Shown: piece by piece, positions 281-14,351 of the stretch
Position numbering within the stretch: the first letter of the stretch is position 1
Layout: each line of letters begins with the position of its first letter
Virus record (IMG/VR): IMGVR_UViG_3300024259_001623
Length of the DNA stretch: 64,000 nucleotides
Reading direction: 5' to 3' (one strand)
Source of the DNA: a virus
Lineage: Duplodnaviria > Caudoviricetes
Position numbers and translations under genes: made by a program
Notes under the pieces: generated by a model
Told to the model about the DNA's origin: nothing
The model's input: the letters and a program-made list of their open reading frames with translations, nothing else
Database searches by the model: none

Positions 281-311
281 ATTATTTTCCTTATAATCTT
301 CTTATTATATC

Positions 312-503
312 TCAGAATGGTACATGTTCTTTATAGGCTTCACATCCATCACATATAGGATATAAATCTGTTCTATTACATGACTCTGCTACTCTATCAC
401 TTTTATGTTGAAAAGTTAAATAAATTCCACAACTAGGACATGGTTTGAGTACCATATAATGCTTTTTTCTGCACCACTTACAATATAACTTTACAGATTT
501 CAT
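312..503 (-). CDS. Small Zn-finger hypothetical protein
   Basis: Three CxxC pairs; ATGA overlap with upstream gene. Confidence 0.6.
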   Translation of the reverse strand: MKSVKLYCKWCRKKHYMVLKPCPSCGIYLTFQHKSDRVAESCNRTDLYPICDGCEAYKEHVPF

Positions 504-931
504 TGATAATCCTCATCTTGAATAATACCGTATTTATGGAAATACCTTAATGGTCGCCATTTATGGTCATTCACATAGAAACCCCATTTATGTCGAGGTC
601 TGCCGAACAATAACAATGTCCAAGCACCTTCTTTAGGAATATCCAAATAATGTTTTTGTTCTGCTTTAGCTTTCCAAATGCTAATTGCTTTGACTTCTTT
701 AGCTCCATCAGGCGTTACATTCTTGTATTTACCCTTCAAAACAATAGAAATCAAATCACAAGAATGGTCATGAAAAAATCTTCTATCATCCGATTTAATC
801 CAATGATGCAATCTGATAGAGAAACCAAAGATAATCAGAGTCCATCTATATAGATAAGGGCAATCTTTTTTACCTAATGGTTCCTTCCATCTAAATTGAA
901 GCCATTTATTAAATTTCTTATAAGGTTTCAT
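500..931 (-). CDS. Cupin-like hypothetical protein
   Basis: LHHW...HDH...SIVLKGKY and AWTLLLFG are cupin-like; start moved to ATG 931, just after the tRNA-like RNA. Confidence 0.55.
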   Translation of the reverse strand: MKPYKKFNKWLQFRWKEPLGKKDCPYLYRWTLIIFGFSIRLHHWIKSDDRRFFHDHSCDLISIVLKGKYKNVTPDGAKEVKAISIWKAKAEQKHYLDIPKEGAWTLLLFGRPRHKWGFYVNDHKWRPLRYFHKYGIIQDEDYQ

Positions 932-933
932 AA

Positions 934-1059
934 TCAACGAAGTGGGAGTCGAACCACGCCTATAGATTCATATATATTTTCCCGGGAAATTATATATTCC
1001 AAAATAAACTCACACACTACGGCTTAGTTGCCGCTGCTCTACCGTTAAGCTATCCGCTG
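934..1059 (-). ncRNA. tRNA-like RNA with 55-nt insertion in T stem (51/52); atypical 6-nt anticodon loop
   Basis: Acceptor CAGCGGA/TTCGTTG, D arm GCTT-AACGGTA-GAGC, stem GCGGC/GCCGT; removing 956-1010 restores GTGGG-TTCGACT-CCCAC. Confidence 0.75.
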
Positions 1060-1079
1060 TTTTCATATAATCTATCCAA

Positions 1080-1295
1080 CTACTGCGACTCGTCCGGGTC
1101 GCCAGAAACAAGTACAGAGAACGAGTCCCTTCCGCACTTCGGGCATTTGGCCCACCACCACCCATCATCATCCGTAGATATGTCTTCTGCTGGGTTGGAT
1201 TCCTGCGGGAAGTAATTCCAATTGCCGTGTTCCTCGCACCGGAATATGGCTAATTTCGCATCTTCTATGCCCACCGCATTCTCTCCTTTTTCCAA
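1080..1295 (-). CDS. Small hypothetical protein (C-terminal CxxC)
   Basis: ORF track; probable GTG start after AAGGAG. Confidence 0.5.
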   Translation of the reverse strand: MEKGENAVGIEDAKLAIFRCEEHGNWNYFPQESNPAEDISTDDDGWWWAKCPKCGRDSFSVLVSGDPDESQ

Positions 1296-1329
1296 AGTGG
1301 AAACTTCTGTTTTCTATAAGTTTTCATAA

Positions 1330-1457
1330 TCAGTGGGGAGGGACTCGCACCTTTCTAGCCAACTACTAATACACTTTCCGGAAGCCATATTAGCGTTCTA
1401 CTAACTCTCGACCTTCCCCGTGTTACGGGGGACGCTCTGCTACTGAGCTACCCACTG
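1330..1457 (-). ncRNA. tRNA-like RNA with 55-nt insertion in T stem (51/52); 8-nt anticodon loop
   Basis: Acceptor CAGTGGG/CCCACTG, D arm GCTC..GAGC, stem TCCCC/GGGGA; removing 1352-1406 restores GAGGG-TGCGAGT-CCCTC. Confidence 0.75.
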
Positions 1458-1473
1458 GTTTACAATTTTATAA

Positions 1474-1627
1474 TCAACAGTGAGGGAATCGAACCTAAAC
1501 CTATTCTCATCAAAAAACGTTTCGAACCGCTTAATGACTACTAATAGATTCTCTACCTTCCACCATAATAGACGACTGCACCTTTCGCCATATTAGGTGG
1601 TTGCTCCGTCCAATGAGCTACCTGTCG
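1474..1627 (-). ncRNA. tRNA-like RNA with 55-nt T-stem insertion and extended anticodon arm
   Basis: Acceptor CGACAGG/ACTGTTG, D arm GCTC..GAGC; removing 1496-1550 restores GAGGG-TTCGATT-CCCTC; anticodon arm CCACC-TAATA...TATTA-T-GGTGG. Confidence 0.7.
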
Positions 1628-1640
1628 GTTTAAACTACTG

Positions 1641-2054
1641 TTACTGTTTGCTTCTTTTACTTATAATTAATCCTTTTAAACGATCACATACATGTTTTCT
1701 ACAATCATCACCAAAATCTTGGTCTAGATCATGGAAACCAGGTCTGGCGTTTTTTTTGCTCTTTTTAGCAGACTTTTTTCTTCTCGTTTCCCAACCTTTT
1801 TTAGAAGCTGCGCTACGTTTCTTACATTCAGCTTCCCATTTATCTTTGCATCTATTTACTGCTGACATCATATCATCTCCTAGAGTATCAGGCGTTAGCA
1901 ATGATATAGTAATCAATTCAACAGTACCATGTACTAATCCAGCAGCAAGAACATCTTTTGCTTCTTCGGTCATTGTATCAGTATCATATTCAACAATACT
2001 ATAGCCATCATAAGGACAATTTTCAGCTACCGTTATTTTCATCTTCTTCTCCAT
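1641..2054 (-). CDS. Hypothetical protein with basic low-complexity segment
   Basis: ORF track, co-oriented with neighbours. Confidence 0.6.
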   Translation of the reverse strand: MEKKMKITVAENCPYDGYSIVEYDTDTMTEEAKDVLAAGLVHGTVELITISLLTPDTLGDDMMSAVNRCKDKWEAECKKRSAASKKGWETRRKKSAKKSKKNARPGFHDLDQDFGDDCRKHVCDRLKGLIISKRSKQ

Positions 2055-2238
2055 CTTCGACTATTTGAAAATAAGAATCAGATAATCTATCTGATAATTT
2101 ATTTATAGTCTCAATATCTTTTTTCGTATTTTTAGGTCTTGCAGGATCATCTCTAAGAACTTGTAAAGCCCAAAGAATACAATTAAACTCATTTACAGTG
2201 AATTTCATTTCATTAACTCTTTTACTTGAGTAGTACAA
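2023..2238 (-). CDS. Hypothetical protein
   Basis: ORF track, packed operon. Confidence 0.5.
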   Translation of the reverse strand: MYYSSKRVNEMKFTVNEFNCILWALQVLRDDPARPKNTKKDIETINKLSDRLSDSYFQIVEDGEEDENNGS

Positions 2239-2399
2239 CTAGGATCAAGAATAAATTTCTGTTTGAATTTACCTCGTTTTATTTTTCGCGTCCAAAGTAA
2301 TCTTCGCATAAAATTTAAAATTGGTCTTCCTTTGAAAGTTACAACCGGCCAACCCAATTTATCTAGATACTGCATATTCTTTTCCTTATTGTCTATCAT
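2205..2399 (-). CDS. Hypothetical protein
   Basis: ORF track. Confidence 0.45.
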   Translation of the reverse strand: MIDNKEKNMQYLDKLGWPVVTFKGRPILNFMRRLLWTRKIKRGKFKQKFILDPSCTTQVKELMK

Positions 2400-3258
2400 A
2401 GTATTCTAGCCATTTTTTAATACATTTGTCAGAAACATTATATTTTCTACCAACAGCACAATAAGACATTGTTTCTAAGTCTTTTAAAAGCTGTTGCTTT
2501 GAAGGTCGTTCCACTTTTCTTTGATTTACTCTTGGAATATAATTTTTAGAAATATAATCAAAATATTCTTTTCGACTCCCATATTTTCTTTTCTTTTCTG
2601 GATAAAAAGTATATTTTGCTGCTCGATATCCTTTAGCATTTTTATTTTTTTTAAGATGTATAGTTTTTATTTCACATGGTTCTACATTTTGTTTCTTTCT
2701 GTTATCAATAAATTTAACAAGCTCTTTAAGAATTATTTTACTATTTTTCTTAAGTTCTTGCCAGCTTATACGAAAAACTTCCCATCCTTGAGATAACGCA
2801 TACTTATCTCTTTTTATATCTTTTTTAATAGTTTTATCATCTTTGAAGTGATGTTGACCATCTATTTCTATATCAATTTTTAATTCTAAAATAACAAAAT
2901 CGAATACGTATTGCTTGTTTTGAACTTTTTCTAAAATAGTAAAATTATCAAAATACTTAGTATTATTTATCAACGTTAAAAAATATTGCTCTGGATAAGT
3001 CCTATTTTCTTTATTTAAATTTACAGAAAGCCAACCTGGGTGCCGTCCTTCGGAATGAGCTTTTTTCATAGATTTAGAAATTTTTTGTGCATTAATTTGA
3101 GCGACCTCTTTACAACTTCTGCTACTTATAAGTTTATTTTTCTTAGCTTTTCTTATATAATGCATTCCTATTTGAAACTTTTCACAAATCTCTTTCCACG
3201 AGTGCCCTTCATTATAATATTTTTGTATTTTTTGCCAATTATAATTTTTGTTTTTCAT
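2386..3258 (-). CDS. Free-standing DUF559/Vsr-like endonuclease with HTH modules (putative homing endonuclease)
   Basis: YVFDF...IEIDGQHH...RD...GWEVFRISW motif; C-terminal HTH; ATG at 3258 follows GGAG. Confidence 0.8.
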   Translation of the reverse strand: MKNKNYNWQKIQKYYNEGHSWKEICEKFQIGMHYIRKAKKNKLISSRSCKEVAQINAQKISKSMKKAHSEGRHPGWLSVNLNKENRTYPEQYFLTLINNTKYFDNFTILEKVQNKQYVFDFVILELKIDIEIDGQHHFKDDKTIKKDIKRDKYALSQGWEVFRISWQELKKNSKIILKELVKFIDNRKKQNVEPCEIKTIHLKKNKNAKGYRAAKYTFYPEKKRKYGSRKEYFDYISKNYIPRVNQRKVERPSKQQLLKDLETMSYCAVGRKYNVSDKCIKKWLEYYDRQ

Positions 3259-3321
3259 TTCGAACTCCAATCTTTTTTATTACATTCTATTGAAGTTCGA
3301 GAAAACCTTCTTAAAAATAAC

Positions 3322-3398
3322 TATTCCTGGCTGGACTCGAACCAGCATAATCATCCTGCTTCGTAGGCAGGGGCCTTATCCAATTAGACTACAGGAAC
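3322..3398 (-). tRNA. tRNA-Arg(ACG)
   Basis: Cloverleaf; CCTGC-CTACGAA-GCAGG; T loop TTCGAGT. Confidence 0.9.
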
Positions 3399-3437
3399 AT
3401 ATAGCCGGGTGTTTTAATCCAATTATACTATAGGGAC

Positions 3438-3707
3438 TTATGGAACATAAAAGACAGGACGACCATCAACATCATCAAACTCCATTACCGCATCTTTCAT
3501 TTCAAAAGGTCTTTCAACAGTCTCACAAATAGGCTTTGAAATCTTCTCGCCTTCCCGACTAACAACTTCAAAAATCTCATCAGTCTCAACAACATCATAA
3601 CCATACGTAGGCAATTCCAAACAATGCTTAATAGAATTCAATATCTTTACTGCCACTTCCTCAGTAACTTCAGGATTGAATACTAGAACCGCTGATAACC
3701 TTTTCAT
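3438..3707 (-). CDS. Hypothetical protein
   Basis: ORF track; start adjusted to MKRLSAV. Confidence 0.55.
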   Translation of the reverse strand: MKRLSAVLVFNPEVTEEVAVKILNSIKHCLELPTYGYDVVETDEIFEVVSREGEKISKPICETVERPFEMKDAVMEFDDVDGRPVFYVP

Positions 3708-3921
3708 CGTTGATTTCCTTTTGAACAGCATCAAATTTACAAGTATGACAAACCAATTTGCCATTATGAACTTTCATGTAGCTACGATGTTCCCATTTTC
3801 CGCACTCAGGACAGGGAAGTTGACCACAGTGAATCTTCAAAGCATTGTCCATGCCTCTCTTAATAGGTTTTATACTCAGACAAACTATAAATAAACCTAA
3901 TGCTATTAAAAAACCAGTCAT
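3670..3921 (-). CDS. Small protein with N-terminal TM helix and Zn ribbon
   Basis: Hydrophobic N-terminus; CPECG...CHTC. Confidence 0.55.
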   Translation of the reverse strand: MTGFLIALGLFIVCLSIKPIKRGMDNALKIHCGQLPCPECGKWEHRSYMKVHNGKLVCHTCKFDAVQKEINDEKVISGSSIQS

Positions 3922-3945
3922 TATATAATCCTTTATATTATGTAA

Positions 3946-4018
3946 TAGGAGCAGCAGGACTTGAACCTGCGGCCGGTCGCTTATCGGGCGACTGCTCTGC
4001 CATCTGAGCTTTGCTCCC
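3946..4018 (-). tRNA. tRNA-Ile(GAT)
   Basis: GTCGC-CCGATAA-GCGAC (C33 instead of U33); acceptor GGGAGCA/TGCTCCT. Confidence 0.85.
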
Positions 4019-4023
4019 TTATG

Positions 4024-4218
4024 CTATAACAAATACTTATCATCGACATCTTCAACTTTCCAAGAAAATTGCCAATTGGCACCTGAAACAGAACATTGTT
4101 TTGATTCATGATTAGTTAATACACTCTCTTTGAGCCTATCTTCATATTCATTAAAAAGTTTTCTTAAACAATCGTATCTATTTTTTCCATAAACTTCGAC
4201 AATTAACTTTTTTGCCAT
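4024..4218 (-). CDS. Hypothetical protein
   Basis: ORF track with AGGAAG RBS. Confidence 0.55.
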   Translation of the reverse strand: MAKKLIVEVYGKNRYDCLRKLFNEYEDRLKESVLTNHESKQCSVSGANWQFSWKVEDVDDKYLL

Positions 4219-4232
4219 TTTTTCTTCCTTAT

Positions 4233-4439
4233 TTAATCGCTAAACATATTTAATTGGAAAGTATGTTCTTTACCACATGCAGGACAAATAAAACACGCCT
4301 CTGTAAAAATGCAAGAGTCCTCGTCTAAATACATTTCTATATTGTCAGAACTTAATGAACAATTAACCCAACGAATTTTGTTAGAACACCGAAAAGCGAT
4401 AATCAACGATGTACTTTGAGATTTAATCTCTCTTATCAT
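4233..4439 (-). CDS. Small Zn-ribbon protein (paralog of 12005 and 12234)
   Basis: F-x-C ... CPACGKEH motif. Confidence 0.55.
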   Translation of the reverse strand: MIREIKSQSTSLIIAFRCSNKIRWVNCSLSSDNIEMYLDEDSCIFTEACFICPACGKEHTFQLNMFSD

Positions 4440-4455
4440 TTTTTACTTCCTTTAA

Positions 4456-4527
4456 TGGGCCGACCCGGGATCGAACCGGGGACCCCGCCTTTTCAAGGCG
4501 GTGCTTTACCTCTTAAGCTCTCAACCC
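4456..4527 (-). tRNA. tRNA-Phe(GAA)
   Basis: CCGCC-TTGAAAA-GGCGG; acceptor GGGTTGA/TCGGCCC. Confidence 0.9.
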
Positions 4528-4590
4528 AGTTTTTAATGAAAAAAGCTCTACTAATGGCCCTTCACATACATATTACTTCAAAAACATTAA

Positions 4591-4663
4591 TGGGATGAGA
4601 TGGAATCGAACCAACTTCTGGCGATCTTCAGTCGCCCGCTTGGACCACGTAAGCTATCATCCC
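4591..4663 (-). tRNA. tRNA-Phe(GAA), second divergent copy
   Basis: GGCGA-CTGAAGA-TCGCC; acceptor GGGATGA/TCATCCC. Confidence 0.88.
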
Positions 4664-4703
4664 TTCTATATTTAAGACCCAAAAGCTCTACCTAATAACT
4701 GAG

Positions 4704-4940
4704 CTAACGGCCCGTATATATTGTTAAAATATCTGTCTCTTGCGATACATCATCAATCAAAACCCAATCAGCCAATTCAACTTTTTCGCTACCACAAAAT
4801 ACCCAATCTACTATTTCACCATCAAAACAAGTCATATGATCTTCGTATATTAGAAAATAAACAAATTTTGTAGTAACTTGAAAAACGACTCTCATAATAT
4901 TATCATGCACATAAGCATGACCTATTAATGCTTGACTCAT
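4704..4940 (-). CDS. Hypothetical protein
   Basis: ORF track. Confidence 0.5.
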   Translation of the reverse strand: MSQALIGHAYVHDNIMRVVFQVTTKFVYFLIYEDHMTCFDGEIVDWVFCGSEKVELADWVLIDDVSQETDILTIYTGR

Positions 4941-4944
4941 TTTA

Positions 4945-5268
4945 TTATTCCTCTCGGTTAAAAAATCTAATCAATTTATAAGTCTTAATTTCTTTTACTT
5001 CTACAATAATCATTTCATCCAAGTAACTTTGAAGACCATTCCCTCGATAATCTTTCTCACTCTCTTTTATAAAAGAAATTAAATGAGATAATGCTTTCTT
5101 AGCTTCCTTTGAAGTATTGAAAAACTTAGCTTCATCAGGTGTCAATGCGAACCTTTCTCCATAGCACAAATATCTATGCTTCCAACAGGGAACGAGTTCT
5201 TCTTCACTATAACCAAGAAATAAAGATTCTCTTTGAGAATTATAAATTACATATTTATAAGCATCCAT
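4945..5268 (-). CDS. Hypothetical protein (F-x-T/K-x-EA-x-x-AL paralog family)
   Basis: AKFFNTSKEAKKAL motif shared with 5268 and 5806. Confidence 0.6.
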   Translation of the reverse strand: MDAYKYVIYNSQRESLFLGYSEEELVPCWKHRYLCYGERFALTPDEAKFFNTSKEAKKALSHLISFIKESEKDYRGNGLQSYLDEMIIVEVKEIKTYKLIRFFNREE

Positions 5269-5576
5269 TACTCTTTCTCTTTCTTAATAGCAAAACAACT
5301 AACGCAATTTACTGGCATAACGCTCAGATTATAATATACTTTTACATCGCCACTGTCCTTGGTATATGCCTTAAAAATCTTCGACAGGGCTGTTTCTGCT
5401 TCTTCTTTTGTACCAAAGATTTTTGCGCTGGAAATTAAAACTTGTTCGTCATCTTCTGTTTCTCTAAGATAACTTCCGAACCATTGTCCCATTGGATCAT
5501 CTTCTGACCATTCAGAAAGAAAACTATCTTCTTCTTCATCTACAATTACAAATCCATCATAACTTACTTCTTGCAT
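5268..5576 (-). CDS. Hypothetical protein (same paralog family)
   Basis: AKIFGTKEEAETAL. Confidence 0.6.
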   Translation of the reverse strand: MQEVSYDGFVIVDEEEDSFLSEWSEDDPMGQWFGSYLRETEDDEQVLISSAKIFGTKEEAETALSKIFKAYTKDSGDVKVYYNLSVMPVNCVSCFAIKKEKE

Positions 5577-5588
5577 ATTATTATCCTT

Positions 5589-5798
5589 TTATCTTCTTTC
5601 GCCGCATTTATCACAGAAATCGCATAATTTTAGTTCGCCGCTATCAGATGACCTTAACTCTTTCCAATTATGATCACATTGATCACCAGTATGATCATAT
5701 TGACCACCAAGAATAGTTGTATTCTTTTCCATTTCCATAACTATTCTATGAGATTCTTGAATAGACTCTTTCGTAATATATTTTTTTTGTTGTGACAT
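5589..5798 (-). CDS. Small hypothetical protein, C-terminal Zn knuckle
   Basis: CDHNW...CDFCDKCG; start adjusted to MSQQKK. Confidence 0.5.
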   Translation of the reverse strand: MSQQKKYITKESIQESHRIVMEMEKNTTILGGQYDHTGDQCDHNWKELRSSDSGELKLCDFCDKCGERR

Positions 5799-5805
5799 AT
5801 TAATA

Positions 5806-6207
5806 TTATCTACTAAGATATTCGTAATGATATACTTTAACCATTTTGCGAATAAAATAAGTTGCATCAAGATGTTTCTGATTACAAGCTTTAAGATCTT
5901 TTTTATAACGACATTGATAACGTCTTCCAGCCTCTTCCAATGTCATCTTCTCTTCTTCTCTCTTCTCGTCATGAATTTTTTTCAAGGTATCTTTTGCTTC
6001 TTGTTCGTCAGTAAATATTACAGTTTTAGAAGTTAGATAAGCTCTATTACAATCTACATGAGAACCTTGACCAGGGCCACCGTCGCCACTCCAATCAGAT
6101 TTCCCATCTCCACTATTATAAACATCAAAACCTATGAAACAATTTCCGCCAGAATAACTTATTCTCTTAATGGCATAGTAAACCTTATCTTCATCGTTAT
6201 CGGACAT
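5806..6207 (-). CDS. Hypothetical protein (same paralog family)
   Basis: VIFTDEQEAKDTL. Confidence 0.6.
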   Translation of the reverse strand: MSDNDEDKVYYAIKRISYSGGNCFIGFDVYNSGDGKSDWSGDGGPGQGSHVDCNRAYLTSKTVIFTDEQEAKDTLKKIHDEKREEEKMTLEEAGRRYQCRYKKDLKACNQKHLDATYFIRKMVKVYHYEYLSR

Positions 6208-6227
6208 TTTTCATCTCCTTAAAGAAA

Positions 6228-6267
6228 GCCGGTAGCAGGAATCGAACCCGCAACATCTGACTTACGA
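6228..6267 (-). pseudogene. Orphan 3' half of a tRNA-Thr(CGT)-like gene
   Basis: T-CGT-AA-GTCAG-ATGTT-GCGGG-TTCGATT-CCTGC-TACCGGC directly after the HNH stop; no 5' half nearby. Confidence 0.7.
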
Positions 6268-6272
6268 TTCAT

Positions 6273-6833
6273 TCAATAACTTTGACCATTTTTATATCTA
6301 TTTCGTCTTTCATGGCGCCCATTACCTCTATTTTTTCCTTTATACGTAGGTAAAAGCATATCACAGTTACCACAAATCAAACGTAAATTATTCACTCTAT
6401 CATCATAAGGATTTCCATTTTCATGATCTAAAACTAATGGCATGGGTTTTCCGCACCACTCATCTCCACCACAGATTTCACATTTGTTTCCATTTTCTTC
6501 TTTTAAATATTTTTTTATTGTCGGCGACGAGCTATTAATAAATTTTTTATTCTTTTTAACTTCTTTTTTGTATTCTTTCCATTGGTATTCCTGGTGACAA
6601 GAACAAGAACAGTATTTAGCATTTATTGTTTTTCTCTGACAATTAATACATTTCTTAGTAGCGTATTTCCCAGTTGAAAAATTTCTAGTCACACCTTTAT
6701 TGTTATGAGTCGCGGAACAAGAATGAGAACAAAATTTATTTTGTTTTTTATTATAAGGTATATCTTCTTCACATTCTTTACATTTTTTAGGATTTTTATC
6801 GTATTCTTCTTTTGTTTTTTGATGTTTTTTCAT
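6273..6833 (-). CDS. HNH endonuclease (putative homing endonuclease)
   Basis: CEICG...LVLDHENGNPYDDRVNNLRLICGNC; N-terminal Zn fingers. Confidence 0.88.
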   Translation of the reverse strand: MKKHQKTKEEYDKNPKKCKECEEDIPYNKKQNKFCSHSCSATHNNKGVTRNFSTGKYATKKCINCQRKTINAKYCSCSCHQEYQWKEYKKEVKKNKKFINSSSPTIKKYLKEENGNKCEICGGDEWCGKPMPLVLDHENGNPYDDRVNNLRLICGNCDMLLPTYKGKNRGNGRHERRNRYKNGQSY

Positions 6834-6917
6834 AACTCGAACTCCAAAGTAGTATAAATTTTACTGTCTACTTTAGTATTCAAGTCCTATACTAAAATTC
6901 CTTTTATTTTTCTAAAA

Positions 6918-6989
6918 AGCTCCTGCCCAGGGTCGAACTGGAATTTCATGATTACAAGTCAAGTGTTCTACCAATTGAACTACAGAAGC
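6918..6989 (-). tRNA. tRNA-Thr(TGT)
   Basis: CTTGA-CTTGTAA-TCATG; acceptor GCTTCTG/CAGGAGC. Confidence 0.85.
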
Positions 6990-6994
6990 AAATG

Positions 6995-7411
6995 AAGGTT
7001 TGTGTTCAATTTGCTAAAGGGCCGCGAATACAAAACCTTAAAAACCATATCGGCCTCTAAAATAGCGCTAGCATTAGTATTAGCATTAAGAGGGCTATTT
7101 TAAATCATTATGCTCCTACGCTCTTACATAGGTTCCCTATGGCTAATGATTAACGGTCGCCGTGTTATGACATTGCCACAAGTCTCTGCTTGATTTACTA
7201 GTATCTAAAGCAGGCCCAAACAAATTCATGCTTGGCACAGCGTTATTTTTTTGATTGGAGTAGCTTTACCACTTATGTTTAACAAGAAGTTTTCGCCGTG
7301 GGAGCCTACGGAGTACCGTATACTTACTTGGGCATTGACTACTCATTCAAGTTAGGTTTAAGTATCTACATCGTCCGTTTGATCTACTATTTTAATATAG
7401 CAGTCCAATCA
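6995..7411 (-). ncRNA. Candidate large structured non-coding RNA (~420 nt)
   Basis: No ORF of 60 aa or more; about 12 nested helices, e.g. 7404-7411/7252-7259, 7236-7242/7158-7164, 7144-7151/7103-7110; between two tRNAs; strand inferred from context. Confidence 0.6.
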
Positions 7412-7414
7412 TAA

Positions 7415-7487
7415 TAGGCGATACAGGGCTTGAACCTGTGACCTTCTGCGTGTAAAGCAGACGTTCTCCCAACTGAACTAATCGCCT
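7415..7487 (-). tRNA. tRNA-Val(TAC)
   Basis: TCTGC-TTTACAC-GCAGA; acceptor AGGCGAT/ATCGCCT. Confidence 0.9.
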
Positions 7488-7495
7488 GTACTTTT

Positions 7496-7894
7496 TTACA
7501 AATTATCCTTATATTTTTCAGCTATATTTTTTTGTGCCGCAAAGACTATACCTTTATCTACTTCTGGAGTAGGGGAAAAAGGAATCTCCCAAGCCAAAAC
7601 CTCTCCATATTGATCAACATAACAAACTTCGACTCTATTCATTTTGACATCAGATACATAACTAAATGCAATTCTTGTATATGTTGCTCTACAAGAAGGA
7701 GCATTATGACATTTTACTCTAGCTCTAAACTCATATTGATGCATCTCTTTTGCTCTTGCTCTCAAAGCAGTGATATGCTTATCAATAAAAGCTTTTATTT
7801 TATCTGCTTTTTGCTCTTTTTTCTCTCTAACCTCTCTCTCAGCCATAAAGATTTCATAGTCTAAAACATCAATTTTTTGCATCATATTATTCAT
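7496..7894 (-). CDS. Hypothetical protein, tandem paralog family (W-x-IPF-S motif) copy 1
   Basis: LAWEIPFS...AAQKNIAEKY; start adjusted to MNNMMQK. Confidence 0.7.
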   Translation of the reverse strand: MNNMMQKIDVLDYEIFMAEREVREKKEQKADKIKAFIDKHITALRARAKEMHQYEFRARVKCHNAPSCRATYTRIAFSYVSDVKMNRVEVCYVDQYGEVLAWEIPFSPTPEVDKGIVFAAQKNIAEKYKDNL

Positions 7895-7895
7895 T

Positions 7896-8348
7896 TTATC
7901 CCTTCCATTTCTCATAATGTTCAACGATAAACTTTTTAGCAGCACTCAGTTTCTTCTCATCTTCTTCTGGATCGAGAGAAAAAGGAATAGCCCAAGACAG
8001 TCTACCACCTATTTCATAATTCTCCATATATTGAACTTGTACTCCACCTTCTATTACATAAGATACAGAACCGAAATTGCTTCGTGGATAGAAACTATAT
8101 ACTGTATCATCATTTGTACGACAACTTGCTCGTTCTGCCGCTTCAAACTGGAACAACTCTTCATTTCTTGCCTGTAATAGTTCCATGTTATCTTCAACGA
8201 AGAAATCGAACTTCAAATCTGCTTCTCTTTTAAGCCTTCTGGCGTCTTTTTCAAGACGCTTGGCCGTATCATTCATATCCAGAATTTCTTTCATCTGACC
8301 ATTCAAATCTTCAATTACTGTCGTATTATTATCCATCGCTTTCTCCAA
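7896..8348 (-). CDS. Tandem paralog family copy 2
   Basis: LSWAIPFSLDPEEDEKKL. Confidence 0.7.
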   Translation of the reverse strand: MEKAMDNNTTVIEDLNGQMKEILDMNDTAKRLEKDARRLKREADLKFDFFVEDNMELLQARNEELFQFEAAERASCRTNDDTVYSFYPRSNFGSVSYVIEGGVQVQYMENYEIGGRLSWAIPFSLDPEEDEKKLSAAKKFIVEHYEKWKG

Positions 8349-8802
8349 ATTTTTCTTTCAACTTCAAATACTCTCTGTATTCTCTGTCTCTTTTTTCTTT
8401 TTCTTTAGATTCTTTCTGTTCATTATAAAAATCAATCAATTCTCGCGTTGCTTTCTCAAGCAAAACTTTATCTTTTTCTTCATCAACGGCAAACGGAATA
8501 GTCCATTGCTCCCAATTGTCGTCATAATAATCACTACAATCCTCAACTTCCAAATGATCAGCATAAATCGCAAGAACAGTTCCAAAAACTGAACTTTTAT
8601 ATTGCCAATGACGAGGATAGCCACCAGACAGTTCTAATTCCAAATCATACAATTCTCTTGTTCTTGCAGCAATCCTGTCAAAATATGTATTCAAAAAATC
8701 TTGACATATCTCTCTATGGGCCGCTTCTAATTCCGAGACTTTCTTTTTAGCTTCCTTTAGCTTTTCGCCAACTTCGATAAATTCTTCGATAAAATTTCTC
8801 AT
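8329..8802 (-). CDS. Tandem paralog family copy 3
   Basis: QWTIPFAVDEEKDKVLL. Confidence 0.7.
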   Translation of the reverse strand: MRNFIEEFIEVGEKLKEAKKKVSELEAAHREICQDFLNTYFDRIAARTRELYDLELELSGGYPRHWQYKSSVFGTVLAIYADHLEVEDCSDYYDDNWEQWTIPFAVDEEKDKVLLEKATRELIDFYNEQKESKEKEKRDREYREYLKLKEKFGESDG

Positions 8803-9189
8803 TTATTTTTCCTCATATACTGCTTGAATCTTGTTCTTTGTCTCTTCCAGAATCTTTTTGTCTTCTTCTTCATCCTCAACAAAAGGAATCCAGCACAAAT
8901 GATCATCATACCTGCCGGTATTTTTATGTACTAGAATCCGATCCTCTAATATGTCAACTATAGTATCGAAATAAAGATCACGATACATACCAACATATTG
9001 TACTGGAGATTCTTTCCATGTTGTCATCTCAAAACAATACAATTCCATAAGTCTTTCGTAAATTCTACCACTATATTTTGAATGAAAAGAATTAATAAAA
9101 GCATCTCTAGACTGTTTCAACTTTTTTATATTCTTTTGATTTTCTTGAAAATCTGCTATATCCATTTTAGACTCCATAATGTTCTTCAA
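8803..9189 (-). CDS. Tandem paralog family copy 4
   Basis: LCWIPFVEDEEEDKKIL. Confidence 0.7.
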   Translation of the reverse strand: MKNIMESKMDIADFQENQKNIKKLKQSRDAFINSFHSKYSGRIYERLMELYCFEMTTWKESPVQYVGMYRDLYFDTIVDILEDRILVHKNTGRYDDHLCWIPFVEDEEEDKKILEETKNKIQAVYEEK

Positions 9190-9544
9190 CTTCTTTTTTG
9201 GCTTCTTCTAAAAGAACCTCATCTTTTTCTTCATCAACGGAAAAAGGTAAAACCCACATATATTTCAATGGAGTATCCAGACCGCAATATGACACTTTCA
9301 CACTATCTTCTGATATATCTTCAATTTTTAAAAACACGTTTTTGAAATATATGTAATGTTCATCTCTCCAAGAGATTTTGGCTTGTGAAGAACAGTCAGC
9401 CTCAAACTCATATAATTCTTCCGCTATTTTAAGAAGCCTAGTTCCGTACAAATTATAAAAGTCTCTAACAAACTGAGATTGTTCAGCCCGCAACTGTTCT
9501 ATCTTTTTCTTATTCTCTGCAAAAACTTTAACATCCATTTTCAT
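9167..9544 (-). CDS. Tandem paralog family copy 5
   Basis: MWVLPFSVDEEKDEVLL; start adjusted to MKMDVK because the upstream part overlaps a tRNA-like RNA. Confidence 0.7.
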   Translation of the reverse strand: MKMDVKVFAENKKKIEQLRAEQSQFVRDFYNLYGTRLLKIAEELYEFEADCSSQAKISWRDEHYIYFKNVFLKIEDISEDSVKVSYCGLDTPLKYMWVLPFSVDEEKDEVLLEEAKKEVEEHYGV

Positions 9545-9562
9545 CTTTCCTATTTTAGAAAT

Positions 9563-9682
9563 AGGGCAAGGCTGGACTTGAACCAGCATCTCAGGCCACA
9601 TAAGCATTTGAAGAGTTCTTATGGTTTCTAAAAAACATTCTTATTGTTGTCAGCCCCCGCTCTACCGTTAAGCTACCTGCCC
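9563..9682 (-). ncRNA. tRNA-like RNA with 55-nt region replacing the anticodon loop
   Basis: Acceptor GGGCAGG/CTTGCCC, D arm GCTT-AACGGTA-GAGC, intact T arm GCTGG-TTCAAGT-CCAGC; 9598-9652 lies between the anticodon-stem strands. Confidence 0.7.
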
Positions 9683-9756
9683 AAATATCAACAACCTTTA
9701 CAGCATCCTCTTTTGCTGCGTCCTCATCAGGGAAAAACACCGGACTAAATATAAAA

Positions 9757-9830
9757 TAGGGCGAGAGGGATTCGAACCCTCAACTTTTCGGTTAAAAGCC
9801 GAATACTCTGATCCATTGAGTTACCGCCCC
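9757..9830 (-). tRNA. tRNA-Lys(TTT)
   Basis: TTCGG-CTTTTAA-CCGAA. Confidence 0.92.
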
Positions 9831-9836
9831 GTTAAA

Positions 9837-10109
9837 CTATTCTACTGGAACCCATTTGGTTACAGTAACTTCTTTCTTTACAACTTCTACTGGTTCAGGA
9901 TCATCATAATCAAACGGTCCTTCATCCTGAGTCTCAGTTGCTCCTACGCTCCAACATAAAGAATAATGCTTACCAGAAGGCTTATGTTTGAATACGCCCT
10001 CATAATGAATAGACCATCGACTAGTATCTATAACCTCTCCCTCTATACGTTCCCAATCATCATGATCATTATAAACAATATCAGCACCTTCTACTCTTGT
10101 TAATTTCAT
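9837..10109 (-). CDS. Conserved phage hypothetical protein
   Basis: DTSRWSIHYEGVF...GATETQD pattern typical of small phage proteins. Confidence 0.65.
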   Translation of the reverse strand: MKLTRVEGADIVYNDHDDWERIEGEVIDTSRWSIHYEGVFKHKPSGKHYSLCWSVGATETQDEGPFDYDDPEPVEVVKKEVTVTKWVPVE

Positions 10110-10351
10110 AATATTCTTCCTTCTCTCTTAAAAATCTCTTCCATTCTCAACGCATTGGCATAAGCATCTTCTGGTTCATATCCATGAATCAGATTTGCTT
10201 TAATCCAACCTTCAAAACGAAGTCTATCTCTGTCTCTTGCTTCCCTTTTGATCTTCATAGCCTCAAATCTACAAGTACTATGATAACCTTTTTCCTTATC
10301 ATTTGCCTCATAAAGCTCTATACCGCAAACAAAACATTCTTCTTTGGACAT
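10106..10351 (-). CDS. Hypothetical protein
   Basis: ORF track, ATGA overlap. Confidence 0.55.
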   Translation of the reverse strand: MSKEECFVCGIELYEANDKEKGYHSTCRFEAMKIKREARDRDRLRFEGWIKANLIHGYEPEDAYANALRMEEIFKREGRIL

Positions 10352-10363
10352 TTTTCTTCTTCC

Positions 10364-10585
10364 TTATTCTAAATCTATGCCAAATTCTTTTTTAACAGCA
10401 TCCTTAAACATCTGTACGACCTCTGGATGCAAATCTTTTCTATCTTGTAACTCAGACATAGTATAAAGCCCAAACCTGTCACAAATGGATTTTTTCAAAT
10501 CTTTCTTAAACTTTCTAACATCCACTTTGTGGTCTATTCTAACTTCATGCTCTAATATACGATCCAAAGTTGCTTTAGAAAACAT
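10364..10585 (-). CDS. Hypothetical protein
   Basis: ORF track. Confidence 0.55.
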   Translation of the reverse strand: MFSKATLDRILEHEVRIDHKVDVRKFKKDLKKSICDRFGLYTMSELQDRKDLHPEVVQMFKDAVKKEFGIDLE

Positions 10586-10594
10586 TATAACCCC

Positions 10595-10825
10595 TTAACT
10601 ATTAAAACTATTTACTCTATCTTGGATATCCTGCTGAAACCTCTTTAAATCACTTTCCTCTCCAGAAACAGTTACATAGAACATGGAATCAAGCCATCCC
10701 TTATCCTCATCAACTGTTATTTGAACAGAATGATAAGTAGATGTGTAATATAATAGGCTTCTTACTTGGCGTCTTAGGATAATACCTGCTGACATCTGAA
10801 AACGCAATGTTGCTGTATCACTCAT
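10595..10825 (-). CDS. Hypothetical protein
   Basis: ORF track. Confidence 0.55.
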   Translation of the reverse strand: MSDTATLRFQMSAGIILRRQVRSLLYYTSTYHSVQITVDEDKGWLDSMFYVTVSGEESDLKRFQQDIQDRVNSFNS

Positions 10826-11229
10826 TATTTCTTCTTTCCTATTCCTAGAACATCCTTCCCATACTTTTCAATAGCGTCTGATAACATCCAATCATAATCA
10901 AATACGAAATTATTATCTTCTACCCATTGATTACAATAATTTCGCCAAATCGAAAGAACAGTAAAATCATCTAAACCGAATGTTTCATCATAAGCCCAAC
11001 AATCATCATCTTCCCCAAAACGCATTTTAATTTCTGTTCCCCAGCCTTCTCCACCGAAGAAAAGATCATCATCCTTAATTAATATAAGACGACGTTGACA
11101 GAACATATCGGCGGTGTAACTGCTCCATACAGGCCAACCGATTACAGGTTGTACCTTCTTGACATATTCGTCTATCGCTTCTTTAATGGTTTGATCTTCT
11201 ATACTACTCAAAATAAACTCCTTCTTCAA
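10825..11229 (-). CDS. Hypothetical protein
   Basis: ORF track, ATGA overlap with HNH. Confidence 0.6.
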   Translation of the reverse strand: MKKEFILSSIEDQTIKEAIDEYVKKVQPVIGWPVWSSYTADMFCQRRLILIKDDDLFFGGEGWGTEIKMRFGEDDDCWAYDETFGLDDFTVLSIWRNYCNQWVEDNNFVFDYDWMLSDAIEKYGKDVLGIGKKK

Positions 11230-11777
11230 TCAATTAACTTCAACTTTCTTGCACGTTTTCTAACAGCATTGTCTGTTACTCCCAATATTTTTCCGATTTT
11301 AACAAAAGAATATTGCTCTATTAATGCTTTTAAATCTACTTCTTCCCATTTAACTTTTCTAGATTTTCTTGTGGCACATAATCTACTACAAGTTTTTTGT
11401 TTCTTTATCTTCATATTACCGCATACAGGACATTTATCCGTTTCCGGTTTTTTCTTTTCTTTATAAGTAACAAATAACTCATTAAACTTTTTTGCATTTT
11501 TAGGAATTTTTCTTTCGCCATAATGTATTTCTGCATGACAATTCCCACAAACTAAAACACATTTTCTTAACTCTTTTATGATTTTGCCCCAACTCTTAGG
11601 ATTAGCTTTAATCTTGCCAAAAGAGAATTCTTTTTCATTTGGGTCTAGATGATGTAGATGCAATGCTGCATGACATTTATTATATCCACAACAAACACAT
11701 TTAGACCCCATTGACTTAACAATACGCTCTTTTGTGTGCTTACGCCATCTCTGAACCTTTTCAGCAGGAGAAAACAT
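11226..11777 (-). CDS. HNH endonuclease with C-terminal HTH (putative homing endonuclease)
   Basis: CVCCG...LHLHHLDP...CVLVCGNCHAEIH. Confidence 0.85.
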   Translation of the reverse strand: MFSPAEKVQRWRKHTKERIVKSMGSKCVCCGYNKCHAALHLHHLDPNEKEFSFGKIKANPKSWGKIIKELRKCVLVCGNCHAEIHYGERKIPKNAKKFNELFVTYKEKKKPETDKCPVCGNMKIKKQKTCSRLCATRKSRKVKWEEVDLKALIEQYSFVKIGKILGVTDNAVRKRARKLKLID

Positions 11778-11854
11778 GTTTAACCTCCATATATAAAATT
11801 AACAATACTAGTTAACTCTATATATCGAGATTTGCATCAAAAACCTTTACTTAC

Positions 11855-11927
11855 CTCCTGCGGCAAGCTCTGCCCTTGCAACTTCCGGTTTAACAGACCG
11901 GCGTTCTACTAATTGAACTACGCAGGA
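11855..11927 (-). tRNA. tRNA-Asn(GTT) with atypical T loop
   Basis: CCGGT-CTGTTAA-ACCGG; acceptor TCCTGCG/CGCAGGA; T arm GCAAG-GGCAGAG-CTTGC. Confidence 0.8.
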
Positions 11928-11930
11928 ATC

Positions 11931-11961
11931 TACAATACAAACTATTTACAATACAAACTAT
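11931..11961. repeat. 15-bp direct repeat TACAATACAAACTAT x2
   Basis: Copies at 11931-11945 and 11947-11961. Confidence 0.85.
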
Positions 11962-11962
11962 A

Positions 11963-11992
11963 TCAATCGCTCTACCACTCGACTACCCAGGA
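11963..11992 (-). pseudogene. Orphan 5' half of a tRNA
   Basis: TCCTGGG-TA-GTCG-AGTGGTA-GAGC-G followed by non-tRNA sequence. Confidence 0.5.
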
Positions 11993-12004
11993 ATTTACAA
12001 TACG

Positions 12005-12214
12005 TTACGCCATATTAAAATTAAGTCTAACATCATGAAGTTTATTACAACCAGTACACATAATTTCAACAGAAGCTTCACTTACATATACATCATCATA
12101 GAATCCTTCTTCTTCAATGCATATTTCATTATTTTTGACTTCAACTGTTTTCATAGAATTATCATTAGGACAAATAAAACTGACAACTAATTTCTCGCAC
12201 TTTATTGTTTTCAT
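12005..12214 (-). CDS. Small Zn-ribbon protein
   Basis: SFICPN...CTGCNKLH. Confidence 0.6.
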   Translation of the reverse strand: MKTIKCEKLVVSFICPNDNSMKTVEVKNNEICIEEEGFYDDVYVSEASVEIMCTGCNKLHDVRLNFNMA

Positions 12215-12233
12215 AAGATTTTCCTTCGATTCA

Positions 12234-12488
12234 TTACCAATTAATCTCTACTTCATGTGTTTCGCCGCAAGGACAAGAGATGTTAGTAGTTATACGATAA
12301 ATAGAATCATCTTCGGCATAATGAAATTCTACTTCCTTATTGTATAACTTTTCTTTTAACGCTTCTTGACTTATTGACGTTGATCTAATGCAATCATCTT
12401 TTTCTGTAGCATTAGGGCATTTAAATGCAACAAAAAATGATACAAGTGTCGCTTTTGCTTTTTTCATAAAAATTACCTCAACTCTCAA
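12234..12488 (-). CDS. Small Zn-ribbon protein
   Basis: AFKCPN...SCPCGETH. Confidence 0.6.
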   Translation of the reverse strand: MRVEVIFMKKAKATLVSFFVAFKCPNATEKDDCIRSTSISQEALKEKLYNKEVEFHYAEDDSIYRITTNISCPCGETHEVEINW

Positions 12489-12524
12489 AAATTTTGCTCA
12501 TCGCATCAGGGACATCCTGATTAA

Positions 12525-12550
12525 CAGGGTAAGAAGGATTTGAACCTATA
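12525..12550 (-). pseudogene. Degenerate tRNA 3' fragment (T arm plus acceptor strand)
   Basis: ATAGG-TTCAAAT-CCTTC-TTACCCT-G just after the HNH stop. Confidence 0.45.
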
Positions 12551-12563
12551 CTATAACATTCAT

Positions 12564-13265
12564 TCATCTTACCCATTTTCTAATTGCATTGTCACTAACT
12601 CCATATTTTCTAGCGATTGCACAAATCGACATAGTTTCCATCATTTTTTGTAATTCTTCTATAGATGGTCTTTTTACTTTTCTTCGTTTCAAACCATTTG
12701 CTTTAGCTGAACATTCTTTACATCTTTTCGATTGTAAAGAAATTTTTTTGCCACATTCGCAAAAAATAATTTTCTTTTTGTAGATAACATTTCGCCCAGC
12801 GAATGTAGAAGTTTGACTATTACAGTTAGGACATAAAAACCTTAAATTTTTTATTCTATGATCATTACTAATTCCATTAATATGATCTAGAACTAAAACT
12901 AATGGTTTTTCTTTCCAAACTGAAGATTGTTCACAAATAGAACATTCATATTTTAATATTTTTTCTTCGACCAATCTTTTCTTTAAAGAACCGCGATTAT
13001 AAGTAGAATTCTTAACTAAAACTTTATCTAGAGGTAATTTTTCTTTATTTTTAAAGCCCCTTACCCTAATTTCTTCTGATCTTTTTCGTAGTTGAGTTAA
13101 ATCTATATTGTCAAACTCACATCTGTCTCTTAATGTTTTATAATTCCCACCTTTGTTAGCTAAATCAAAAAATTGTAAAACGTCGGAAAAAGTGTTTCTT
13201 TTTGATATTACATCAACTAAAGTTTCTTTATTTATTTTCCAAATAGGACTGCGATGTTTTTTCAT
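12564..13265 (-). CDS. HNH endonuclease with C-terminal HTH (putative homing endonuclease)
   Basis: CSICE...LVLDHINGISNDHRIKNLRFLCPNC. Confidence 0.88.
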   Translation of the reverse strand: MKKHRSPIWKINKETLVDVISKRNTFSDVLQFFDLANKGGNYKTLRDRCEFDNIDLTQLRKRSEEIRVRGFKNKEKLPLDKVLVKNSTYNRGSLKKRLVEEKILKYECSICEQSSVWKEKPLVLVLDHINGISNDHRIKNLRFLCPNCNSQTSTFAGRNVIYKKKIIFCECGKKISLQSKRCKECSAKANGLKRRKVKRPSIEELQKMMETMSICAIARKYGVSDNAIRKWVR

Positions 13266-13341
13266 AGTGGTACTCCTTTACCACTATATCGGATTAATTG
13301 GAAACATGTCTATTCTTTATTTTTATATGTTTCCAATTAAA

Positions 13342-13415
13342 CAAGGCAGGCTGGACTCGAACCAGCAACCGAGAGAATCAAAATCTCCCATTCTATCCAA
13401 TTGAACTACTGCCTT
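13342..13415 (-). tRNA. tRNA-Gln(TTG)
   Basis: GGAGA-TTTTGAT-TCTCT; acceptor AAGGCAG/CTGCCTT, G73. Confidence 0.85.
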
Positions 13416-13422
13416 ATATAGT

Positions 13423-13528
13423 ATTTACGGGGAGGATTCAAACCTAATCAACTATAAGCGATCAACCTTACAGCGACTCCATCTATCCCTTAAAGAGAGA
13501 TCACTTTATCTTTTTAAGCTACCGTAAT
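13423..13528 (-). ncRNA. tRNA-Lys(TTT)-like RNA with 33-nt hairpin insertion in T stem (51/52)
   Basis: ATCTC-TCTTTAA-GGGAT; removing 13445-13477 restores GGAGG-TTTGAAT-CCTCC. Confidence 0.65.
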
Positions 13529-13533
13529 ACTAA

Positions 13534-13606
13534 TACCCCCAGCAGGGATCGAACCTGCGACCTTTTGGGTAAGAACCAAATGCTCTACCAATTGAGCTAT
13601 GGAGGC
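13534..13606 (-). tRNA. tRNA-Lys(CTT)
   Basis: TTTGG-TTCTTAC-CCAAA. Confidence 0.9.
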
Positions 13607-13613
13607 GTAAAAA

Positions 13614-13787
13614 AGAGAACATGGTAGGATTTTAACCTACAAACTTTTGGGCCTTGATCAAGAGCAACCAAGACTGTACCCAAATTGTTGCCATTGCGGA
13701 CTAGTAACCGTAAGCACGTCTGCCTTCAATGGCCTCGTCCAAACCATTTCTGACGGTCTACACTTAACTTTGTGTAGCATATTCTCT
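13614..13787 (-). ncRNA. 174-nt structured RNA with tRNA-like ends (10-bp terminal stem plus T-arm-like hairpin)
   Basis: AGAGAATATG/CATGTTCTCT; CTACAC/GTGTAG; GTAGG-TTAAAAT-CCTAC; TTTGGG/CCCAAA; lies inside the tRNA array. Confidence 0.6.
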
Positions 13788-13789
13788 AA

Positions 13790-13863
13790 TACGTCTGAGA
13801 GGATTCGAACCTCCAACAACCGCTTTAGAAGAGCGGGACTCTGATCCATTGAGCTACAGACGC
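13790..13863 (-). tRNA. tRNA-Arg(TCT)
   Basis: CCGCT-CTTCTAA-AGCGG. Confidence 0.92.
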
Positions 13864-13872
13864 AAATATAAA

Positions 13873-13947
13873 TTCTCCCGATAGGATTCGAACCTATAAC
13901 CTTTGGTTTAGGAAACCAACGCTCTAATCCTATTGAGCTACGAGAGC
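13873..13947 (-). tRNA. tRNA-Arg(CCT)
   Basis: TTGGT-TTCCTAA-ACCAA. Confidence 0.88.
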
Positions 13948-13952
13948 ATAAA

Positions 13953-14024
13953 AAGAGCAGATAGGATTCGAACCTATATCTAGAGATTCAGAGTCTCTTA
14001 TTCTGCCAATTGAACTACTGCTCT
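13953..14024 (-). tRNA. tRNA-Gln(CTG)
   Basis: AGAGA-CTCTGAA-TCTCT. Confidence 0.88.
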
Positions 14025-14030
14025 ATAAAA

Positions 14031-14114
14031 TGGATCAGGAAGGATTCGAACCTACTCAGCCTTACGGCACAAGATTTACAGTCTTGCCCAACTCTCCCAC
14101 GTTGGCGCTGATCC
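14031..14114 (-). tRNA. tRNA-Tyr(GTA)
   Basis: CAAGA-CTGTAAA-TCTTG; long variable arm GCC-GTAA-GGC. Confidence 0.92.
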
Positions 14115-14177
14115 GTTTTATTACATCCAAGTATATAATTGTCAAAAAGCTCTGAAAACCCTCAACGGTTTTCTAAG

Positions 14178-14252
14178 GGTGCCCAACGGGGTTCGAACCC
14201 GCAACCCCAAGATTCACAATCTTGTACTCTAGCCAATTGAGCTATGGGCACC
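14178..14252 (-). tRNA. tRNA-His(GTG)
   Basis: CAAGA-TTGTGAA-TCTTG; G-1:C73 pair. Confidence 0.92.
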
Positions 14253-14277
14253 ATGAAATAAATTTTAAAACAAACAA

Positions 14278-14349
14278 CACCGCCTGTCAGAATCGAACTG
14301 ACCGCATCGAGTTTTGGAGACTCAATCGCCTGCCTTGGCATTAGACGGC
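14278..14349 (-). tRNA. tRNA-Trp(CCA)
   Basis: TGAGT-CTCCAAA-ACTCG; G73. Confidence 0.85.
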
Positions 14350-14351
14350 AA

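Follow-up and report, generated by a model that had tools for sequence, protein, structure and literature searches.

Introduction

Huge phages put much into their tRNA islands, and GOLLD and ROOL, both of unknown function, cluster there. In phage T4, the tRNA cluster also includes the species I and II RNAs, which are about 120–140 nt long, and the gene of SegB, a homing endonuclease of the GIY-YIG type. This cluster gives a primary transcript of ∼1.75 kb from which eight tRNAs, the species I and II RNAs, and the segB mRNA are derived (PMC2330249), and homing co-converts the flanking DNA of the cluster (PMC2330249). GOLLD and ROOL are large noncoding RNAs (ncRNAs) found near tRNA genes in phages and prophages, and they are possibly co-transcribed with the tRNAs (PMC5737381).

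Here we examine a spacer in the tRNA island of an uncultivated marine phage whose genome is ∼433–435 kb, judging by the longest contigs that bear its proteins; a stretch of 64,000 nt (the window) was analyzed. The spacer is 425 nt long (6990–7414 of the window) and lies on the minus strand between tRNA-Val(UAC) and tRNA-Thr(UGU). It is thus a noncoding segment within a tRNA gene cluster and on the tRNA strand, and in that respect it is of the same kind as the T4 species I and II RNAs. A preliminary description had proposed that it specifies an RNA of many nested helices, either a new large structured ncRNA or a divergent member of a class such as GOLLD or ROOL.

Results

ARAGORN, Rfam, and the ORF listing all agreed with the preliminary description that a stretch of ∼420 nt between tRNA-Val and tRNA-Thr is free of ORFs. 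The main features of the locus, in window coordinates, are the following.

9727–9733, minus strand: nearest same-strand TCCCTGA box upstream of the spacer (motif scan of the window)
7415–7487, minus strand: tRNA-Val(UAC), the 5′ flank of the spacer (ARAGORN; Rfam tRNA model, 69.6 bits)
6990–7414, minus strand: ORF-free spacer, candidate ncRNA (ORF, Rfam, composition, and MFE analyses)
6918–6989, minus strand: tRNA-Thr(UGU), the 3′ flank of the spacer (ARAGORN; Rfam tRNA model, 61.3 bits)
6273–6833, minus strand: free-standing HNH endonuclease gene of 186 aa, downstream of tRNA-Thr (homologs; conserved Cys, His, and Asn)

The first 14.4 kb of the window hold at least 17 tRNA or tRNA-like genes (ARAGORN, Rfam), and every gene between about 9830 and 4945 is on the minus strand. 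Within the 16-kb tRNA island, the spacer is the longest gap without a gene or tRNA except for that at 932–1640, which contains tRNA-like RNAs; plain gaps elsewhere in the island measure 62–287 nt. The HNH endonuclease gene starts 84 nt past tRNA-Thr. Its product has 47 homologs, some of them with a Pfam HNH_3 or Zn-ribbon domain, and a Cys/His/Asn pattern is conserved in their alignment. We take the gene as context only, a sign that homing endonucleases move through the tRNA island.

Two other observations were made on the island. The Rfam tRNA model adds two elements to ARAGORN's list, both on the minus strand.

9563–9682, minus strand: tRNA-like gene of 120 nt with a large insertion (Rfam tRNA model, 44.1 bits; missed by ARAGORN)
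11855–11927, minus strand: tRNA of 73 nt (Rfam tRNA model, 53.8 bits; missed by ARAGORN)

The minus strand of 7496–9607 encodes five tandem paralogs of 128–157 aa, with 17–30% identity to the first, which share the conserved motif W-x-IPF-x(4)-E-x-D. They form an orphan family: an HMMER profile run against 1.84 billion proteins found just three non-self relatives below 1e-7, all distant and all from short marine metagenome contigs.

The spacer is noncoding under three genetic codes. Its longest ORF under code 11 is 38 aa; when TAG is read as Q or TGA as W, stop-to-stop frames confined to the spacer reach at most 59 aa, and the longer read-through frames (81 and 104 aa) extend out across the flanking tRNA genes. 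An ORF of 22 codons at 6980–7048, with GAGG 5 nt upstream of its ATG, terminates within tRNA-Thr. The interval between the two tRNAs is likewise empty in gene calls made independently on public contigs of this phage. Nothing in the rest of the window resembles the spacer at the DNA or protein level: blastn-short gave matches of at most 13 nt, and tblastn of all 395 ORFs of the window against the spacer gave chance matches only, with no detectable protein remnant. The spacer contains no iterons, and no tandem or direct repeats other than a hexamer repeat of 20 nt (7069–7088).

In base composition, the spacer is RNA-gene-like and atypical for this genome. Its GC content is 38.6% with a GC skew of −0.04, as compared to 32.5% and −0.30 for the coding sequence of the phage, 50.6% and −0.11 for its tRNAs, and 25–34% and −0.12 to −0.62 for the ordinary gaps of the tRNA island. 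A GC skew as near zero is found in only 1.3% of 425-nt windows, and hardly any such window besides the spacer combines a GC fraction of at least 0.38 with balanced skew. The near-zero skew is not specific to the spacer, as it continues through the HNH gene's Lys/Cys-rich 5′ part; some of it may therefore stem from joint acquisition of a cassette and not from constraints of base pairing. The other main long run of near-zero skew, at about 16426–17275 (425-nt windows starting at 16426–16851), lies in and around a 202-aa ORF (16413–17021) and the AT-rich gap after it.

Searches with Rfam 15 over the 64-kb window at the gathering score matched no model to the spacer. When positions 6800–7600 (801 nt) were searched at E≤10 with lax filters, two overlaps with the spacer appeared, both at chance level (E = 2.5 and 6.2) and both far below the gathering scores of their models. 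The suggestion of a divergent member of the GOLLD/ROOL class failed on these results. GOLLD (RF02032) gave no covariance-model match either at the gathering score or at E≤10, and ROOL (RF03087) likewise gave no model match; in addition, the spacer, at 425 nt, has at most two predicted multistem junctions and a diffuse ensemble. At E≤10 there was also no match to the manA RNA motif (RF01745) or to SRP, 6S, Y RNA, HEARO, or self-cleaving ribozymes.

The preliminary description had noted the absence of RNase P and tmRNA hallmarks. No Rfam RNase P model matched at E≤10, no tmRNA was called by ARAGORN at default settings, and none was matched by Rfam at E≤10. ARAGORN was also run at relaxed thresholds covering tRNA, tmRNA, intron-containing, and mitochondrial types. 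At 50–70%, these runs produced one heavily mismatched “Tyr(ata)” artifact in the spacer, and at 50% a spurious permuted tmRNA call that lies on the opposite strand and runs off the sequence. With the Rfam tRNA model (RF00005), only the two flanking tRNAs scored, so neither a tRNA nor a tRNA remnant was recovered from the spacer.

No related spacer was found in any collection. Against 50,697 phage records (GenBank), blastn in its “distant” setting matched tRNAs only. In IMG/VR, no related spacer was reached with exact 24-mers, with a tRNA-anchored gap pattern, or by way of the neighboring 149-aa protein, the helicase, or the paralog alignment. A pattern made of the D-arm and anticodon loop of tRNA-Thr retrieved 12 IMG/VR and 40 metagenome (JGI) loci, all lacking the spacer (nhmmer, blastn). 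The 80 IMG/VR loci around HNH homologs were without a homolog of the spacer as well, and five whole IMG/VR records of 340–440 kb gave chance matches of 15–20 nt only. The helicase had no match in ten large IMG/VR records (107–441 kb), an empty answer that is uninformative, and GTDB genomes searched with the paralog alignment and the anchored pattern yielded no related spacer. The neighborhood is itself poor in relatives: among GenBank phages the best relatives of the helicase have at most 38% identity, and the 149-aa and 133-aa neighbor proteins have no homolog besides themselves. The earlier proposal to collect homologs of the spacer thus yielded no diverged one in GenBank phages, IMG/VR, JGI metagenomes, and GTDB.

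A sister phage was recognized through its HNH protein (P0013), which is 80% identical and is encoded on a contig of 4,954 nt (ENA ERZ23498361); the gene-free gap upstream of its HNH gene is 949 nt as compared to 662 nt here, and it is the most promising site for a diverged copy of the spacer. Further sister-phage contigs are in ENA ERZ23498365 and ERZ23498360. Another HNH relative (P0051) has an unrelated genomic context. The spacer itself is carried by 12 metagenome contigs (ENA, JGI, Logan), which show 100% identity across the spacer and as much as 6 kb of its surroundings. Because all 12 copies are identical, they provide no polymorphisms for an analysis of covariation. The phage population as a whole is almost clonal over at least 10 ENA, JGI, and Logan samples: positions 1–16833 of the window differ from one public contig by one mismatch in 16.8 kb and from the other contigs by none, and the protein index contains two versions of the genome, of 432,844 and 434,625 nt, that are nearly identical. 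The phage is present in the ENA series ERZ272501xx–2502xx, in JGI 3300023210, 3300024243, 3300024260, 3300027996, and 3300072015, and in SRA SRR7618777 and SRR7624270.

All 12 helix pairs named in the preliminary description were found in place, 10 as exact reverse complements and 2 with a G-U pair; two of the helices, ATACTTA/TAAGTAT and ACTTG/CAAGT, overlap by one base. As evidence of structure, the helices did not hold up, inverted-repeat counts being within chance by comparison with both shuffles and genome windows. The spacer has 28 perfect inverted repeats of 6 bp, 10 of 7 bp, and 4 of 8 bp, as compared to dinucleotide-shuffle means of 23.6, 6.2, and 1.65 (P = 0.25, 0.16, and 0.15, respectively), and 31–41% of other 425-nt windows in the genome equal the counts of the spacer.

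The minus strand of the spacer has an MFE of −106.2 kcal/mol (z = −2.07), and 3 of 100 shuffles were equally good; the plus strand folds with z = −0.67. Mean z for the genome's own 425-nt windows, which are mostly coding, was −1.32 (n = 24) and −0.92 (n = 61), and 15–25% of such windows reach the value of the spacer. In sliding 90-nt windows, the mean z of the spacer lies at the 15th percentile. Measured against controls, as had been proposed, the result was borderline: the spacer folds slightly better than its shuffles, but no better than the genome's background, within which both its folding energy and its helix counts fall. The predicted fold is also poorly defined, the MFE structure having a frequency of ∼0 and the ensemble a diversity of 87. 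By partition function over the full-length ensemble, 5 of the 12 named helices are probable (0.67–0.98), namely CUGCUAU/AUAGUAG (0.98), ACGG/CCGU (0.94), CUGCUU/AAGCAG (0.94), UGAUUGGA/UCCAAUCA (0.80), and AAGGUUU/AAACCUU (0.67); the other 7 have probabilities of 0.21 or less.

Where an ornate fold of nested and long-range helices had been envisaged, prediction gives a chain of separately closed modules.

∼7251–7412, minus strand: module 1, ∼160 nt, multi-branched, closed by the 8-bp helix UGAUUGGA/UCCAAUCA (folding)
∼7158–7243, minus strand: module 2, 85–86 nt, cloverleaf-shaped (folding)
7059–7151, minus strand: modules 3 and 4, two A/U-rich hairpins (folding)
6995–7039, minus strand: module 5, the 3′-terminal hairpin AAGGUUU/AAACCUU (folding)

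Module 1 includes the hairpins CUGCUAU/AUAGUAG and ACGG/CCGU. In module 2, a 7-bp closing helix (CGCUGUG/CACGGCG) surrounds three hairpins and is followed by ACC-G; this closing helix has a probability of only 0.10 in the full-length ensemble, as compared to 0.94 for the inner CUGCUU/AAGCAG hairpin. The closing helices of modules 3 and 4, AAUCAUUA/UAAUGAUU and AAAAUAGC/GCUAUUUU, have probabilities of 0.09 and 0.21 in the same ensemble. The loop of module 4 contains a short AUGCUA-type repeat, which TRF reports as a 6-nt repeat at 7069–7088, and 5 nt separate the end of module 5 from tRNA-Thr. Self-complementary words occur in the predicted loops of module 2 (ACUAGU) and module 4 (UAGCGCUA). 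Because the module boundaries were picked after the helices had been seen, the z-scores of the modules folded alone are biased: −2.84 for module 1 (4 of 200 shuffles as good), −3.25 for module 2 (0 of 200), −2.78 and −1.29 for modules 3 and 4 (−0.64 together), and −0.94 for module 5, with z≤−3 occurring in 3.5% of arbitrary 90-nt windows of this genome. Module 2 did not match the tRNA model at E≤10 and has neither a T-loop (GTTCRA) nor a D-arm signature, and a covariance model built from it found itself alone when run against 427 kb of other phage loci.

The spacer contains neither a sigma-70-like promoter nor an intrinsic terminator, and the TCCCTGA box is absent from it. In the window, TCCCTGA occurs 15 times as compared to 5.4 expected, and 13 of the 15 occurrences are on the minus strand; the two-box form TCCCTGA-N(10–14)-AATTGT is absent from the window. 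The strongest intergenic hairpins of the phage have z-scores of −6 to −8, and the spacer has none so strong.

These hairpins and those next to the endonuclease gene are of interest in their own right. The strongest-folding 90-nt windows on the minus strand are 23051–23140, 42131–42220, 38261–38350, and 45101–45190 (z = −7.9, −7.8, −6.3, and −6.0, respectively), and two of the strongest-folding windows lie immediately upstream of TCCCTGA boxes (42127–42133 and 38354–38360), which suggests that hairpin and box together are units of terminator hairpin and promoter between genes. Two A/U-rich hairpins, UUUAGUAU...AUACUAAA and AAAGUAG...CUACUUU, occupy the 84 nt that separate tRNA-Thr from the HNH gene, ahead of a GGAG ribosome-binding site (6806–6895, minus strand). 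The 90-nt window 6806–6895 has a z-score of −5.1, far stronger than any fold in the spacer. These hairpins could serve the endonuclease gene as an element of processing, attenuation, or translational control; a comparable control element has been proposed for T4 segB.

Discussion

The reading that we tentatively prefer, and which we hold to be possible rather than probable, is that the spacer specifies a modular RNA that is co-transcribed with the tRNAs and released by their processing, in the manner of the T4 species I and II RNAs. A single minus-strand transcript would cover the five paralogs and then tRNA-Val, the spacer, and tRNA-Thr, with a promoter that probably lies farther upstream; the TCCCTGA box at 9727–9733 is a candidate for the transcript start. 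Together, 3′ trimming of tRNA-Val and cleavage by RNase P at the 5′ end of tRNA-Thr would free an RNA of ∼425 nt, the former defining its 5′ end and the latter its 3′ end. If excised and stable, this RNA would be a chain consisting of the 160-nt branched module, the cloverleaf-shaped module of 85 nt with ACC at its end, and three hairpins, and it may be cut again into smaller stable RNAs. Its most plausible role would be in tRNA biology, as a decoy or binding partner for enzymes that process or target tRNAs; an interaction with tRNA enzymes would seem the most natural role for a phage that invests so much in tRNAs and their look-alikes, but this is a guess.

Co-transcription is consistent with the position of the spacer on the tRNA strand and with its lack of an internal promoter, terminator, or TCCCTGA box. 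That the spacer acts as RNA at all is favored by its noncoding status, by its length among the gaps of the island, and by its raised GC with balanced skew, although the skew is shared with the HNH gene. It is also favored by two results of the folding models, in which folding is better on the minus than on the plus strand and modules 1 and 2 are predicted to fold alone. The same models argue against it, in that predicted folding is at background level, the ensemble is diffuse, and 7 of the 12 helices are improbable; the absence of a match to a known RNA family in the sequence searches may likewise be counted against it. A new large structured ncRNA, as originally envisaged, is accordingly possible but unproven.

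All structure statistics are within background and endonucleases traffic through the island, and it is therefore nearly as likely as release of a modular RNA that the spacer is neutral, that is, DNA left over from gene conversion or shuffling by homing endonucleases, passively transcribed, degraded, and without function. We consider this a realistic explanation, if still a doubtful one. Its thermodynamic and helix statistics cannot be distinguished from those of the genome at large, tRNA-Thr is followed after 84 nt by an HNH endonuclease gene, and no relative was found in any collection searched. A balanced skew that reaches into the HNH gene would also fit a jointly imported cassette of foreign composition, and in T4, homing is known to co-convert DNA of the tRNA cluster (PMC2330249). 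However, phage genomes are tightly packed, and a neutral remnant of 425 nt and 38.6% GC would stand apart from the other plain gaps, which are at most 287 nt long and have 25–34% GC. Moreover, neither an ORF nor a tRNA has left decayed traces in the spacer, and it is the presumably transcribed strand that folds better.

Two further explanations have less in their favor. In one, which we regard as improbable, the spacer would specify a single RNA of a new class, large, compact, and ornate, that acts like GOLLD or ROOL. GOLLD and ROOL are able to form multimers, and the self-complementary loop words ACUAGU and UAGCGCUA would be in keeping with such an RNA, but by an arithmetic estimate, chance alone gives ∼6.6 palindromic hexamers and 1.7 octamers per 425 nt. 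Size and raised GC fit as well, as does the tRNA-adjacent position in a phage, which is where GOLLD and ROOL are found (PMC5737381). However, no Rfam model of a large RNA matches even at E≤10, the spacer is shorter than the ROOL average of 581 nt, and within a diffuse ensemble no well-supported long-range helix is predicted between modules, which favors a string of modules over one ornate globule. The other explanation, that the spacer is a DNA-level element (a replication origin, a recombination site, or a protein-binding site) or holds genes for tiny peptides, we regard as very improbable. The 22-codon ORF at 6980–7048, with its GAGG 5 nt before the ATG, is the point in its favor, but this ORF stops inside tRNA-Thr, frames confined to the spacer are at most 59 aa under any code tried, and a TCCCTGA box is absent from the spacer. 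Nor does the spacer contain iterons, or repeats beyond the 20-nt hexamer repeat, and it is not AT-rich.

Returning to an RNA released by tRNA processing, we consider it unlikely that the phage makes one or more new, lineage-specific RNAs from its tRNA precursor by way of host enzymes, with the cloverleaf-shaped, ACC-tailed module and the branched module acting on enzymes that handle tRNAs or on defense enzymes that cleave them. If so, the RNAs would belong to a tRNA-island class not described before and restricted to one clade of marine phages with genomes of 430 kb. More generally, an unrelated RNA arising through tRNA processing would, if real, strengthen the view that tRNA islands are general factories of ncRNA, and it could point to new ways in which phages manipulate translation or evade defenses that target tRNAs. 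For now, the candidate is an orphan supported by composition and position only, and its value is mainly that of a marked locus.

As in T4, a non-tRNA, noncoding segment lies in a phage tRNA cluster together with a free-standing homing endonuclease gene, and the layout (tRNA-Val, spacer, tRNA-Thr, and HNH gene, without an internal promoter or terminator) is analogous. The endonuclease is of the HNH type here as compared to GIY-YIG in T4; the spacer, at 425 nt, is longer than the species I and II RNAs (∼120–140 nt), and no sequence relationship to them is to be expected. Expression and processing have been shown for the T4 RNAs, whereas for the spacer we infer them. To GOLLD and ROOL, the likeness is that of a tRNA-adjacent site in a phage and nothing more: ROOL averages 581 nt and GOLLD is longer still, and the modular, poorly defined fold predicted for the spacer gives no evidence of their architecture of multistem junctions and pseudoknots. 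The tRNA-like RNAs of this same phage, which are tRNA-shaped with large insertions, are similar to the spacer in island, strand, and raised GC. Module 2 further resembles them in its predicted cloverleaf outline and in a 7-bp closing stem followed by ACC, but the spacer differs from them in having no T-loop (GTTCRA), D-arm signature, or sequence similarity. If real, the spacer RNA would thus be an orphan member of a loose kind, the noncoding RNAs of phage tRNA islands.
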